Assembly (NCBI GenBank): GCA_021827925.1
Contig: JAKATZ010000001.1
Location: 1 to 51,123, forward strand
Direction of reading: 5' to 3'
Source: Candidatus Micrarchaeota archaeon
GTDB taxonomy: Archaea; Micrarchaeota; Micrarchaeia; Micrarchaeales; CABMGC01
Length of the DNA stretch: 51,123 nt
Translations under genes and position numbers: made by a program
Shown here: positions 4,726 through 40,033 of the stretch, piece after piece
Layout of the letters: the number at the start of each line of letters is the position of its first letter
Numbering within the stretch: position 1 is the stretch's first letter
Notes under the pieces: generated by a model
What the model saw: only the letters and a program-made list of their open reading frames with translations
The model's database searches: none
Told to the model about the DNA's origin: nothing

Positions 4726-5625
4726 CTAGAAGGGCTTGGAAAGCCTTGCTTTCAGGCCAGAAGCCCGCTCAACCGAAAAGGCTTCGTCTACGGCCTTGTA
4801 AAGCTCGTCCTTTCTCGTGTTTATGTAAGTCATTGTGGTGCTTGGATCGCTGTGTCGTGCGAACCTGCTGGAAAGCACCACATTCCCGTTGCTCTGGCGT
4901 GCGAAGCTGGTTATTGCGTAGTGCCTCAGGCTGTGCGTAGTCAACCTATGGAGCCTCCTAGGCGTCCTTCCGTATGACTCCTCGCTCTGGTCGTAGACTT
5001 CGTCCAGCCTTGCCGCTTGGACATACTCCCTGAACACCTTACGCACATAGTTCTTCTCTAGGAACGGTTCGCCTCTTAGGCTATGCCCAAGTTCCGCGAA
5101 GAACATGAACCCGCCAGCTTGCGTGATCGCTTTTTCGTTCCTGTTTATGAACTCGACAGTTTGCCGAAAAAGTGGCACTGGAATAAGCATTGTGTCTATA
5201 ACGTGAGCTTTTTCAGTTTTCACGGTTAGCTCACGTGTCTCGAACTTGATGTCTTTGACATTGACTTTGACAGCTTCGCCTATCCTGAGTCCAAGCTGCG
5301 CTTGATACCCAAACAATAGGCGAAACTTGTCGTTTTCTATAACTTTGAAAAAGGCCTGCACCTCCTGTTCTGTGAAGCCCTTATTCAGGCTTCCATACTT
5401 TGGAGGCGCATTGCCTCTGAACCTTTTCTTCTTGATGTGGTAGATTACGGACAGGACATCCTTAATCTCATGGAAAGTTAGACTAGGAAGCACTTCTTTG
5501 ATGTGCTTCTTAAGTTTTTCGGGTTCGGTCTCCGTGATGGAATCGAACCGTGTGGGGCTTAATTCCTTTTCCTTGGCCAGTGAACTGAACCCGAGTTTGT
5601 CGTCGAAAATTTGATTTGCTCCCAT
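4726..5625 (-). CDS. Tyrosine recombinase / phage-type integrase
   Basis: Catalytic-type motifs are present: LGLRIGEA (Arg), THSLRHYAIT (HxxR), ARHSD (His) and TMTYIN (Tyr). The start codon overlaps the tRNA-like fragment. Confidence 0.85.
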   Translation of the reverse strand: MGANQIFDDKLGFSSLAKEKELSPTRFDSITETEPEKLKKHIKEVLPSLTFHEIKDVLSVIYHIKKKRFRGNAPPKYGSLNKGFTEQEVQAFFKVIENDKFRLLFGYQAQLGLRIGEAVKVNVKDIKFETRELTVKTEKAHVIDTMLIPVPLFRQTVEFINRNEKAITQAGGFMFFAELGHSLRGEPFLEKNYVRKVFREYVQAARLDEVYDQSEESYGRTPRRLHRLTTHSLRHYAITSFARQSNGNVVLSSRFARHSDPSTTMTYINTRKDELYKAVDEAFSVERASGLKARLSKPF

Positions 5626-36240: not shown

Positions 36241-37329
36241 TTGCGAAATCGTTTCACAATCTCTCTGGTTTTTATTAGTTCCCTTTCATTATACTGTGAT
36301 GGCATGAAGGCGCAGTCCGCGATCGAATTCCTCGCTACCTACGGCTTCCTATTCATAATACTTGCTACGGCAATAATTCTCATAACGCTGCTAGCCACAT
36401 CCACAGGCGTAGCTGTCCAGTCACAGTGTGCATCTTTCGGCACGGTGTCGTGCAACTACGTGGATTATTACATAGGCAATGGTTATTCGCTTCTCCTCTT
36501 CTCGATAACCAACTCGCAGGCTGCTCCGGTAAACGTAATATCGGTTAACGCAACCATAAACAGCAAGACATGGAATGGGCTGTGTGAACCTGGCTTCCTT
36601 ATGCCAGGTGCAGAAGCAACGTGCGTAGTCAACCTGCCGCGCCAAGGCAACATCGGCGGGAGCGAGTCAGGATTTTATACTGTGAATGCTGAGTACTGCA
36701 ATGCAGGAGTGGGATCGCTGAACAGCGTGGAATGCAGCTATGAGCCAGCATTGTACAGCGGCTCGTTTTACACCTATGTATCGGACACTAAGGCTGCAGT
36801 TTTCAGTGTTTCGGTTGCAAGGGCGCCGTCTAGCCTGCAGATAGTACCTTACAACGGCGTTCCGCAGATACCTTCCGGCTATCAAGTGATGCAGAACGGC
36901 GATCTTGTTGCTGCGAGCAATGCTCTCGGCTTCGGATACGCGTACGGCAGCGGGGGCTTTGTAGGCTTGGACCACTTGGGAATCAGAACCATCCCGTTTC
37001 CGGCGAGCCTGTCAGTTCTTTCAGACAGTGCCGCGTGCAGCCAGCCTTACAATTCGCTATACTCCGTTGCATATTCTGTGTTTTATGTCAATTCCCCCAC
37101 GAGAGTAGGAATCTCGGCGTACAGCAACAATGCCATAGACGTGTATTACCAATACGGCGGATCGGGAGTATGGGATAGCATGTTCCAGTCCTCGCTATGG
37201 AACTCTAACGGGAATAATGAAGGAGGGGCTTACGTTTCTCTTGCTTCAGGTCTCTACGGAATAGCCGTCGCATCTGCGGAGGAGTGCGGACCTGGTGTCC
37301 AGGCCCTTGCAGTAAACGGGTTGTCATAG
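36241..37329 (+). CDS. Class III signal peptide (pilin-like) protein, a different family from the LamG paralogues
   Basis: MKAQSAIEFLATYGFLFIILATAIILITLLA begins at the likely true start, 36304. The rest is Ser/Gly/Tyr-rich and extracellular-looking. Confidence 0.6.
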   Translation: MRNRFTISLVFISSLSLYCDGMKAQSAIEFLATYGFLFIILATAIILITLLATSTGVAVQSQCASFGTVSCNYVDYYIGNGYSLLLFSITNSQAAPVNVISVNATINSKTWNGLCEPGFLMPGAEATCVVNLPRQGNIGGSESGFYTVNAEYCNAGVGSLNSVECSYEPALYSGSFYTYVSDTKAAVFSVSVARAPSSLQIVPYNGVPQIPSGYQVMQNGDLVAASNALGFGYAYGSGGFVGLDHLGIRTIPFPASLSVLSDSAACSQPYNSLYSVAYSVFYVNSPTRVGISAYSNNAIDVYYQYGGSGVWDSMFQSSLWNSNGNNEGGAYVSLASGLYGIAVASAEECGPGVQALAVNGLS

Positions 37330-38367
37330 CCCCTTGAGTAGTGATTTTTCTATCCCGACTATATTCCTGAAAGCACTGAGCTGCTTGCCGGCCTCATCGT
37401 CTGAATTGAATATCTCTATGCGTACCCCCTGTTTGTCTGCCTTATCAAGAAGAGCTTTTATCTCTTCGGTGTTTATTACGGAATCATTGACTATTATTAC
37501 GCCCAGCGAATAATCGCTTAGGGCATCAGAAACCTTTTCTATGCCAGATATCGACTTGTTCAGCCTGAGCCCATTGAAGAATGTGTTAAGGTACTCGAAT
37601 TCCTTCCTGACGTGCTCGCCGGCGAGTAGCTTCATTGTCTCGGAACTCTGCATGACCTCCCTGACGCCGGACCTCTCAGCGTCGCTTGCAGAGGCGTATA
37701 CAACACGCTTGGAGAGCTTTATTCCCTGGGATTCGACATATTTTTTGATATCATCCTTTGTGAATCCGGGACCTGCGACTATAACTATGTCGACCCCCAT
37801 GCGTTCTATTGCTTCGATCACATCATTGAAATAGTCAGTCCTGCGCTTTTCATAATCCTTTTCCTTCATCTTCTTGCTCAGCCTGCTGTACATCTCGCTT
37901 ACTAGCTCTATGCCGTAGCCGCGTATGTATGCCACGGTAGCCTTCTCGTCATCGATGGCTATCACTCCCAGCCTGGGCCTCTTTGACTCTGTGACAGCCT
38001 GCTTTATCCTTTTCAGTAGGTAATCCTTCCATTCGCGCTTCGATATCTCCAGCTGGTCCGATGGGCCTATGCTCAGGGTGTGATAGCTATTTATGCGTAT
38101 GAACTCTTCTGGGTTTCCGCCGACTATTTTTCCTGTCACTCTCAGCCTGCCTGCGCTCTTGTCTATTTCCACCTTCTCCACAGTCAGGTTTATGAAAACT
38201 TCCTTCTGTTCTCCCTCGTCACCCTCGCTTGGCTTGAAACGACGGTATCCTTTCGCGCCAAGCGTGTCACCTGCGGAGATGACCATCGCAAGCACGTAAA
38301 GATCCTCGAACGACTCGGGTTCGACCTTGAGTGAATTGCCCGGTTCATAGAATCGTATTATCCTCAT
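37324..38367 (-). CDS. pelA: Pelota (Dom34-type mRNA surveillance / ribosome rescue factor)
   Basis: The protein is 347 aa. The N-terminus MRIIRFYEPGNSLKVEPESFEDLYVL and the overall eRF1-like pattern match my recollection of archaeal Pelota. Confidence 0.85.
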   Translation of the reverse strand: MRIIRFYEPGNSLKVEPESFEDLYVLAMVISAGDTLGAKGYRRFKPSEGDEGEQKEVFINLTVEKVEIDKSAGRLRVTGKIVGGNPEEFIRINSYHTLSIGPSDQLEISKREWKDYLLKRIKQAVTESKRPRLGVIAIDDEKATVAYIRGYGIELVSEMYSRLSKKMKEKDYEKRRTDYFNDVIEAIERMGVDIVIVAGPGFTKDDIKKYVESQGIKLSKRVVYASASDAERSGVREVMQSSETMKLLAGEHVRKEFEYLNTFFNGLRLNKSISGIEKVSDALSDYSLGVIIVNDSVINTEEIKALLDKADKQGVRIEIFNSDDEAGKQLSAFRNIVGIEKSLLKGL

Positions 38368-38504
38368 TCAAGCTCACTGTCCTTTCTCCTTTCCGCGCAG
38401 CTGCATCCGCACTCGCAGTTCTCTGCACACCTGCATCCTTGCCTGCAGCCGCAGAGGCATGCACCGCCGCATTCGCATCCTGCGCCGGCGCCTTGGTTTG
38501 CCAT
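38364..38504 (-). CDS. Cys-rich micro-protein (46 aa, 11 Cys, metallothionein-like), below the ORF-track cutoff
   Basis: My own translation gives MANQGAGAGCECGGACLCGCRQGCRCAENCECGCSCAERRKDSELE. Its stop codon overlaps the pelota ATG in an ATGA arrangement. Confidence 0.45.
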   Translation of the reverse strand: MANQGAGAGCECGGACLCGCRQGCRCAENCECGCSCAERRKDSELE

Positions 38505-38615
38505 TTGATTCACGATGCTGATTATGACTCATCTTTCTCTTAATACCATATGCTTTGGAGACTGCATCGCAGAAAATACGAAATTCGTATAGCTAAAACG
38601 AAATTCGTAGAAAGG

Positions 38616-38623
38616 TTTAAATA
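38616..38623 (+). promoter_or_regulatory. Strong archaeal TATA box (TTTAAATA) with a purine-rich BRE-like upstream flank
   Basis: AGAAAGG-TTTAAATA lies immediately downstream of two copies of the palindrome ACGAA-A-TTCGT. The nearest + strand CDS starts about 235 nt downstream. Confidence 0.45.
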
Positions 38624-38856
38624 TCTTGCATGGCACACTTAACTACGGGCATTACTATGTGAGAAGGGTGGGGATGAGGCATGGGGACCAGTCAATCGGC
38701 CCCCATGCACTCTAATTATCATGACCACACAGCCAACCGAAAGCCTTTTTACCTTAATCGTTGTAATGTTAGTATAATTGTCGGAGGGAAGTGCTGGAAG
38801 CCCTCATGAGACTTGGTTCTAAAGCTTTGCAATTCAGAAAACGAAATGGTTAGAGT

Positions 38857-39621
38857 ATGACCGAAAAAGCCAAATCAATCATTGCGGTTCCAGCAGGCAG
38901 ACTTACTGATATGGCTTTTCAGAGGCTGCTCAGGGGAGGCGTGCTTTTGGCCGATGCGGTTGATGCGTTCAGGAGAAATGGCGATGACACAAAGCCATTA
39001 TCCACAACGGTAACAGGAGTTTACGCGCAGGTATTCAGTCCAAGAGACACCGTAACCAATCTGTTAATTCCAGAACGCAGGGTCATTGTTGCGATATCCG
39101 GAGATGATTATGTTGTTGATCAGGGACTATTAGGATTCAATCCTGCGACAGGTGAGCTTGTGATCCCGGATGATCCGAAGATTGAAAGAGTAGGAATCAT
39201 AAGGGCTTTTGGAAGCAATGGGGCAGAGATCAGACCGGAAGTCGTGCTTGCTGTCAAAAGAGCAGAGTGGGAGGGAGCAACGCCAGAGGAGATAGTGGCA
39301 AGCGGTAAGATAAGGAAGGCAGTGGTGAAGAGGGGTACGTACGAGAACATAGCAAAAATGTACATAGATCACCACAGCATGCATACAGAGTTAGAGGTGC
39401 GTGGAGGCAAGCTTGAGCCTTACGTGAGGGAGGGATGGGTTGACGGCGCCTTCGATGCAAAGGAGAGTGGCAGGCACCTACAGGAGAACGGGCTTTACGG
39501 GATAAGGGTGATGCAGACCCACTGTGCCGTCTTTGCTGTGCAAGGATGGCAGATGTCCAGCCTTGCCGATCAGACAGGCACTATTTTGGAGCGCGTAGGT
39601 AAGGTTTCTGTGCCGCTGTAG
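38857..39621 (+). CDS. Divergent HisG-like (ATP phosphoribosyltransferase fold) protein; assignment is tentative
   Basis: The N-terminus IIAVPAGRLTDMAFQRLL resembles the HisG start. The C-terminal segment EPYVREGWVDGAFDAKESGRHLQENGL resembles, but departs from, the HisG signature. Confidence 0.35.
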   Translation: MTEKAKSIIAVPAGRLTDMAFQRLLRGGVLLADAVDAFRRNGDDTKPLSTTVTGVYAQVFSPRDTVTNLLIPERRVIVAISGDDYVVDQGLLGFNPATGELVIPDDPKIERVGIIRAFGSNGAEIRPEVVLAVKRAEWEGATPEEIVASGKIRKAVVKRGTYENIAKMYIDHHSMHTELEVRGGKLEPYVREGWVDGAFDAKESGRHLQENGLYGIRVMQTHCAVFAVQGWQMSSLADQTGTILERVGKVSVPL

Positions 39622-39669: not shown

Positions 39670-39813
39670 CTACTCTCTTTGCAGAGGGTGCGTGCATTTG
39701 TCGCAGTTCGCTTTTATGACTCTGAACGGATAGAATTCCTCCTGTATTGCTGCTATGTGCTCAGGGGAGCACTCGCAGGTACATGGCACTTCGGACTTGC
39801 ATTTTTTGCACAT
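39670..39813 (-). CDS. Possible small zinc-ribbon protein (47 aa), below the ORF-track cutoff
   Basis: My own translation gives MCKKCKSEVPCTCECSPEHIAAIQEEFYPFRVIKANCDKCTHPLQRE, with CxxC pairs at both ends. Confidence 0.3.
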   Translation of the reverse strand: MCKKCKSEVPCTCECSPEHIAAIQEEFYPFRVIKANCDKCTHPLQRE

Positions 39814-39913
39814 TTCAATACCGGATTGTTGACATTGCACTGGATATGCGTTATTGCTTTACGATGTCCCGTCATGTTTGAACATGATGGAAAACAAACC
39901 CTGGGCTCGTAGT

Positions 39914-40033
39914 TGGCGGGGGCGAGATTTGAACACGCGGCCTCTAGATTTCTTAGTCATAGCAAAGAATGCTCATCACTCATTATGCTCGGCATATGAG
40001 TCTAGCGCTCTAACCAGGCTGAGCTACCCCGCC
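39914..40033 (-). tRNA. tRNA with CAU anticodon (elongator Met or Ile2) carrying a 45-nt intron at the canonical 37/38 position
   Basis: Folded by hand, the minus strand reads GGCGGGG TA GCTC AGCCTGGTTA GAGC G CTAGA CTCATA [45-nt intron] A TCTAG AGGCC GCGTG TTCAAAT CTCGC CCCCGCC A. The T-stem has one U-U mismatch. It is not initiator-like: there is no A1-U72 and no GGG/CCC anticodon stem. Confidence 0.85.

Follow-up and report, generated by a model that had tools for sequence, protein, structure and literature searches.

The window analysed here is a stretch of 51,123 nucleotides from a Candidatus Micrarchaeota archaeon. A short open reading frame (ORF) on its minus strand runs directly into the gene for pelota, and the two genes and the sequence elements around them are arranged as follows.

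38624-38616, minus strand: strong TATA box ATATTTAAA, read from the sequence
38609-38598 and 38589-38578, minus strand: two identical palindromes TACGAATTTCGT, 20 nt apart, found by a motif search of the window
38537..38547, minus strand: TATA-like GGTATTAAGAG, a candidate proximal promoter 33-43 nt upstream of the ATG of the Cys-rich gene
38510..38513, minus strand: GTGA, a putative weak Shine-Dalgarno-like motif at -9..-6 of this ATG
38364..38504, minus strand: metallothionein-like gene of 46 amino acids with 11 Cys, delimited by translation, family alignments, a codon selection test and pairwise comparison with the homologue L026
38364..38367, minus strand: ATGA, in which the stop of the Cys-rich gene overlaps the start of pelota
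37324..38367, minus strand: pelota (aPelota/Dom34-type), 347 amino acids, the downstream gene of the two-gene unit, recognized by the Pfam domains eRF1_1/2/3 (PF03463, PF03464, PF03465)
38331..38543, plus strand: ORF of 70 amino acids, an antisense shadow and not a gene

The minus-strand ORF at 38364-38504 translates to MANQGAGAGCECGGACLCGCRQGCRCAENCECGCSCAERRKDSELE, a peptide of 46 amino acids with 11 Cys and neither His nor aromatic residues. Translation and composition thus bear out the metallothionein-like character ascribed to it in the initial annotation. Cys makes up 24% of the peptide, and every Cys lies within a C-x-C run, the complete spacing being C-x-C-x3-C-x-C-x-C-x3-C-x-C-x3-C-x-C-x-C-x-C. 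If all ATG-initiated ORFs of at least 40 amino acids in the six frames of the window are ranked by Cys-richness, this one comes first out of 240, the runner-up reaching 15%. The local stretch has a G+C content of 65% as compared to 48% across the window.

The Cys core can be described as two C-x-C-x3-C-x-C-G-C units (residues 10-20 and 24-34) linked by a joint of three residues and followed by x-C, and after it comes a charged C-terminal tail. The two units suggest that the core arose by internal duplication. Position 2 is always Ala, Pro or Thr in the family, and these residues permit removal of the initiator Met, so that the mature peptide is likely to consist of about 45 residues. An alternative GTG start at 38513, which would give 49 amino acids, was ruled out, as it is the ATG at 38504 that coincides with the family start M-[APT]-N-Q-G in the alignment.

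The surroundings of the two genes hold three further features. A second small Cys-rich ORF is located at 39670-39840 on the minus strand (56 amino acids from a GTG, 47 from an ATG). It has C-x2-C pairs at both ends and a C-x-C-x-C motif, is second in the window with 15% Cys, and has no homology to the 11-Cys family. The divergent neighbour at 38857-39621 on the plus strand encodes 254 amino acids with a weak partial match to HisG (ATP phosphoribosyltransferase; E 1.2e-7, residues 133-245). A tRNA match of 55.7 bits at 39914-40033 on the minus strand spans 120 nt for a model of 71 positions, and this tRNA gene therefore probably contains an intron.

At least 14 homologues of the 46-residue ORF were found in metagenomes and metagenome-assembled genomes (MAGs). 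A word-indexed search of 5.8 billion protein clusters yielded one relative of 55 amino acids (P0001), and a full HMMER scan of 1.84 billion representatives yielded four family members. The fifth HMMER match was weak (E 1.3e-4) and belongs to an unrelated repetitive protein of 1,686 amino acids. Seven homologue loci came from a metagenome scan with back-translated motifs, and four further homologues from a profile search. Called proteins of the family number only 8 in the 5.8-billion-cluster database, where they are unnamed or termed "hypothetical".

When aligned, 14 sequences are gap-free across the core, and their size ranges from 46 to 60 amino acids. All 11 Cys are invariant, as are the non-Cys residues N3, Q4, G7, G9, E11, G13, G14, G19 and G33. 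Other members than the copy in the window have at most one Tyr, Phe or Trp in the core, and a few carry Tyr or His in the tail. In the mine-drainage and sediment runs X5, X9, X10 and X12 we further observed several more contigs each that match only approximately the first 40 nt of the ORF (38464-38504) and diverge exactly at the ATG. These contigs probably represent more family members, and the family is then commoner there than the called-protein databases indicate.

We compared the ORF with its homologues at the DNA level. In the alignment with L026, for which the flanks were included, the ATG is the exact point at which similarity sets in, with unrelated sequence on the flanks. The two ORFs differ by 17 synonymous and 10 replacement codons, with a saturated pS of 0.77 and a pN of 0.18. 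A frame test was then calculated from the 11 members whose DNA was to hand. In the sense frame the mean pN/pS is 0.26, the variable columns are distributed 15/16/36 over the three codon positions, and no stop occurs, while the remaining five frames give pN/pS values from 0.52 to 1.93 with 1-8 stops. The Cys frame is under purifying selection. The only strain variant within the ORF, 38427 A>G in three other runs, changes TGT to TGC and is synonymous.

The initial annotation had raised the caveat that the ORF might have arisen by chance in TGC/GCA-biased low-complexity DNA, and one may equally think of a true gene on the other strand or in another frame. The local G+C content is compatible with this, and the window shows an open antisense frame as well. 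Yet the homologues with their unrelated flanks, the invariant Cys and a low pN/pS solely in the sense frame, with stops in every other one, refute the caveat and leave hardly any room for a chance ORF. The 70-residue plus-strand ORF had correctly been taken for an antisense shadow, having a pN/pS of 1.93 and one stop among the 11 homologues. Two overlapping minus-strand ORFs of 52 (38374-38532) and 39 amino acids (38345-38464) were also ruled out by the frame test. Codon-level selection and conservation place the ORF far beyond chance, and we are highly confident that 38364-38504 on the minus strand is a real, selected gene. It is a clear case of a real gene below the length cut-offs of gene callers.

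The pelota of the window is 51-66% identical to the pelota of 25 MAGs, nearly all of them assigned to Candidatus Micrarchaeota, and the runs containing the window are mine-drainage metagenomes. Most other homologue loci are tied to Micrarchaeota as well, by way of their neighbouring genes. MsrB and MsrA of L029 are 78% and 61% identical to the copies in the window, the parvulin of L027/L028 is 88% identical to that of L035, amidohydrolase and PolX of L026/L031 share 59-65% identity with those of L029, and the E3-like genes of L040 and L026 are 67% identical to one another. For the homologue P0003 the annotation reads hypothetical protein, Candidatus Micrarchaeota archaeon. We regard the restriction of the family to Micrarchaeota as no more than probable because L030, L034 and L037-L039 are without such a neighbour link and the link of L032 is weak (40% over 67 residues to the window). 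No relative of the family was found in viral contigs, so that a virus-borne origin of the gene is unsupported.

The overlap of the TGA of the Cys-rich gene with the ATG of pelota stands as first described, and in an alignment with 22 relatives this ATG falls on residue 1 of their pelota. A GTGA similar to the one before the Cys-rich gene is located about 10-7 nt before the pelota ATG, within the tail codons of the Cys-rich gene. The ATGA overlap makes it likely that both genes are co-transcribed in this genome and that their translation is coupled. The arrangement is not conserved. A Cys-rich ORF upstream of pelota was found at 0 out of 25 Micrarchaeota pelota loci, and 0 out of 25 have a family member within 3 kb of pelota in the 7 kb fetched. 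Comparison with relatives, which had been proposed as a check, thus gave a divided result: the Cys pattern is kept in the 14 sequences, and synteny with pelota is not. The pelota loci and the varied contexts of the homologues lead us to reject a functional link to pelota and ribosome rescue, and the linkage in the window is an accident of this lineage that goes back to the dense packing of genes in a compact genome.

The homologues occupy at least six different contexts.

L034: upstream of ribosomal protein L1
L037-L039: between an HD-domain gene and MscL, followed by L1-L10-P1
L027, L028 and L035: squeezed between an upstream gene and parvulin, with a TGA-ATG junction
L040-L042, about 5001-5171: between E2 and the E3-like Pyr_redox_2 gene of a complete E1a-E1b-E2-E3 operon for a 2-oxoacid dehydrogenase
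L036: directly 3' of a methyltransferase gene (Trm5/TYW2-like)
L026, L029 and L031: stand-alone genes with a convergent downstream amidohydrolase

Stop and start codons at either end of the gene often overlap or abut, which indicates that it is habitually packed into the housekeeping operons of compact genomes. In L040-L042 an upstream ATG of the family member overlaps the stop of E2 (TGATG), and the gene ends 6 nt before E3. Such an extra upstream ATG was observed in two lineages (L037 5001-5006 and L040 5001-5009), where it adds MN- or MVF- and overlaps the stop codon at the end of the gene before it. In the L037 and L040 lineages, 5' translational coupling thus seems to have been added to the conserved M-A-N-Q start. 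No metal transporter, metal sensor or resistance gene occurs as a conserved neighbour among the homologue loci. As a side aspect of L036, positions 1-1328 hold a gene for an aminotransferase of the DegT/DnrJ/EryC1 type with matches to intein-splicing and HINT domains, that is an intein-containing sugar aminotransferase.

With regard to expression, the TATA-like element upstream of the ATG, already pointed out in the initial annotation, appears plausible. In L034, the closest homologue, TTTTATAA occupies -43..-36 and GTGA recurs at -9..-6, and own TATA-like boxes are present 22-40 nt upstream of L026, L029, L030 and L031. The elements shared with L034 are the grounds on which we infer a proximal promoter with a short leader. 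The region 38578..38624 with the strong TATA box and the palindromes is located 74-120 nt upstream of the ATG. A search of the window for TACGAATTTCGT gave 3 matches, all from these two sites and none elsewhere, as compared to 0.19 expected. The layout of ATATTTAAA and TACGAATTTCGT resembles an operator for a repressor that covers a transcription start. It may represent a repressor-controlled distal promoter of the unit formed by the Cys-rich gene and pelota, or it may belong to a separate unit. As an operator of the whole family TACGAATTTCGT was ruled out, being present upstream of 0 out of 42 homologue loci. Three small metatranscriptomes of the same study, kept as contigs, gave no match on 37300-38900, and their size is too small for this to be informative.

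Metallothioneins are small (under about 10 kDa), contain approximately 15-35% Cys in conserved C-x-C, C-C or C-x-x-C arrangements, and have few or no aromatic residues and His. The 46 residues of the peptide in the window, its Cys content and the invariance of all 11 Cys agree with this description, and so does the lack of aromatic residues and His in the copy of the window. By composition the family thus falls into the operational metallothionein class, with metal binding as the putative property that goes with it. A zinc-finger-like fold such as marks SmtA and BmtA is not predicted for the family, and its core has no His ligands.

The sequence databases did not connect it to any known member of the class. 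All 11 out of 11 members searched were without a Pfam-A family at E values up to 10, no NCBIfam model matched family members, and a search of PDB chains with the family profile returned no metallothionein, the sole match being a small conotoxin with a non-significant E value of 0.75. Human MT2A, which served as the positive control, matched PF00131 at 5.6e-23, so the search is able to see small Cys-rich proteins. In an hhalign comparison, residues 10-27 were matched to the C-x-C pattern in the beta-domain of human MT2A with a probability of only 18.6%. From these results the family is judged, on sequence similarity, to lie outside every known metallothionein sequence family. An AlphaFold2 model from the family alignment has a mean pLDDT of 59, shows no secondary structure for residues 1-35, and places a helix only in the charged tail. 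The prediction is consistent with an apo-thionein that has no stable fold, and it is not diagnostic.

Several functions other than metal storage have to be weighed against these observations. The peptide might act as a thiol/disulfide redox buffer, or interact with a pyridine-nucleotide disulfide oxidoreductase as its partner or substrate, and would then protect against redox or oxidative stress. Such a role is hinted at by the position of the gene between E2 and the E3-like Pyr_redox_2 gene in L040-L042, by the orthologous E3-like gene (67% identity) and an NAD kinase 2.5 kb away in L026/L031, and by MsrA and MsrB 1-2 kb upstream in L029. The E3-like gene, however, is part of a complete E1a-E1b-E2-E3 operon and is most simply a lipoamide dehydrogenase, and most members, including that of the window, are without such a neighbour. 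The dense C-x-C spacing is moreover typical of metal clusters and would be strained for intramolecular disulfides, for which reasons we regard the redox role as unlikely. A structural role as a zinc-binding micro-subunit or cofactor in translation or proteostasis is to be considered in view of the neighbours pelota (window), L1 (L034), MscL and then L1-L10-P1 (L037-L039), parvulin (L027, L028, L035) and the Trm5/TYW2-like methyltransferase (L036), together with the invariant non-Cys motif at the N-terminus. Since translation genes make up a large share of small DPANN genomes, such neighbours are to be expected by chance; none of them is conserved, the copies in L026, L029 and L031 adjoin amidohydrolase and PolX, and the C-x-C runs are unlike the C-x2-C knuckles in the zinc ribbons of ribosomal proteins and RNA polymerase. 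The AlphaFold prediction without a fold likewise argues against a structural subunit, which we consider quite improbable.

The ATGA overlap with pelota and the tight downstream junctions in L027, L028, L035 and L040 could also be expected of a Cys-rich regulatory leader peptide (uORF) that senses Cys-tRNA or the cysteine supply and sets downstream expression. The at least six different downstream contexts include no cysteine or sulfur gene, though, and the copies in L026, L029 and L031 have no co-directional downstream gene to regulate, which counts for a stand-alone function and largely refutes a leader. Conserved non-Cys residues combined with saturated synonymous change also fit a functional peptide and not a codon-counting leader, so that a role of this kind is very unlikely. 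A secreted or post-translationally modified peptide, either a RiPP precursor or a disulfide-rich toxin-like molecule, would be small and Cys-rich too, and a conotoxin Cys framework is what the family profile weakly matched in the PDB. But a signal peptide and a leader-core architecture are both missing, and genes for radical-SAM enzymes, cyclodehydratases, proteases or exporters are absent as conserved neighbours; we give this explanation just as little weight. The stand-alone copies and the frame test taken together essentially exclude the leader peptide, the secreted or modified peptide and the chance ORF.

The best reading of the gene product, at a probability of about 0.6, is a constitutively co-expressed metal-thiolate buffer for Zn, Cu or Cd, and we consider metal-thiolate binding by the peptide as such to be equally probable. 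The arguments for the metal buffer are the mine-drainage habitat, the Cys content of 24% entirely in C-x-C runs, and the first rank in Cys-richness within the window. Against it count the lack of a conserved metal-gene neighbour and of any match to known metallothioneins. The presence of one core aromatic residue (Tyr, Phe or Trp) in some members also counts against it, and the invariant N-terminal motif x-N-Q-G-x-G-x-G, which contains no Cys, may point to a specific partner or to a function that goes beyond plain chelation. We infer metal binding, its stoichiometry, the use of the promoter and the coupling of translation.

The peptide most likely works in the manner of a metallothionein. In this picture it would be disordered when metal-free, and its thiolates would wrap round a metal-thiolate cluster. 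Going by the 11-Cys alpha-domain of vertebrate metallothioneins, one peptide might hold about four Zn(II) or Cd(II); the Cu-thioneins of fungi and mycobacteria would instead suggest a load of about six to eight Cu(I). For an archaeon whose habitat is metal-laden mine drainage, the peptide could thereby serve to buffer soft metals in the cytoplasm or render them harmless, and constitutive co-expression with housekeeping genes would provide a standing metal buffer. The more specific proposal of an independently evolved archaeal metallothionein family, confined to Micrarchaeota, built as a single 11-Cys domain from two C-x-C-x3-C-x-C-G-C units and acting as a constitutive Zn/Cu/Cd buffer expressed from housekeeping operons, is in our opinion an even bet.

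If true, an archaeal metallothionein family would contradict the textbook view of archaea without metallothioneins. That such peptides are essentially undescribed in archaea, as had been stated at the outset, is in agreement with a review according to which "MTs are absent in archaea" (PMC3600143). Studies on metal tolerance in Thermococcus gammatolerans and Haloferax mediterranei found no metallothionein (PMC3407056, PMC9240420), the main paper on Micrarchaeota genomics does not mention such a protein, and we found no paper in the literature using the phrase "archaeal metallothionein". The family would also add a metal-binding scaffold that is new, compact and not homologous to any known family. 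It would further exemplify how a symbiont with a reduced genome withstands metal stress in metal-rich acidic waters.

A comparison with known systems may help to place the family. It resembles the metallothioneins represented by the PF00131 domains of vertebrates, the Cu-thionein of Neurospora crassa and the N-terminal domains of plant types 1 and 2 in being smaller than 5 kDa, with 24% Cys arranged exclusively as C-x-C, in having Gly, Ala, Ser, Lys or Glu between the Cys, and, for the copy in the window, in lacking His and aromatic residues. The alpha-domain of vertebrate metallothionein contains 11 Cys, the same number as this family, and binds 4 M(II). In contrast to all these proteins the family is archaeal and single-domain, with no detectable homology to them; its N-terminus, M-[APT]-N-Q-G-x-G-x-G, is strictly conserved, its charged tail is predicted to be helical, and its metal binding is putative.

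Among prokaryotic systems, SmtA and BmtA are likewise small cytosolic proteins, which sequester Zn or Cd in a four-metal cluster. SmtA differs by its zinc-finger fold, His ligands and control through the SmtB repressor, and compared to SmtA/BmtA this family has no core His, no predicted fold, no Pfam match and no SmtB/ArsR neighbour. Csp1 and Csp3 are Cys-lined prokaryotic Cu(I) stores of the cytosol or periplasm. They are pre-folded four-helix bundles of about 120-140 amino acids that form tetramers, whereas the present peptide has 46 amino acids and a Cys region without predicted helix.

The Cys spacing and sequence of the copper metallothionein MymT are presumably unrelated to this family. 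MymT is copper-induced and required for Cu resistance, and there is no sign of induction for the family described here. Both are prokaryotic, lineage-restricted, Cys-rich peptides of roughly 50 amino acids that were missed by gene callers: MymT of Mycobacterium tuberculosis, a 4.9 kDa protein believed to accommodate up to about six Cu(I) in a core shielded from solvent, was found by screening as an unannotated small ORF (PMC7558416).
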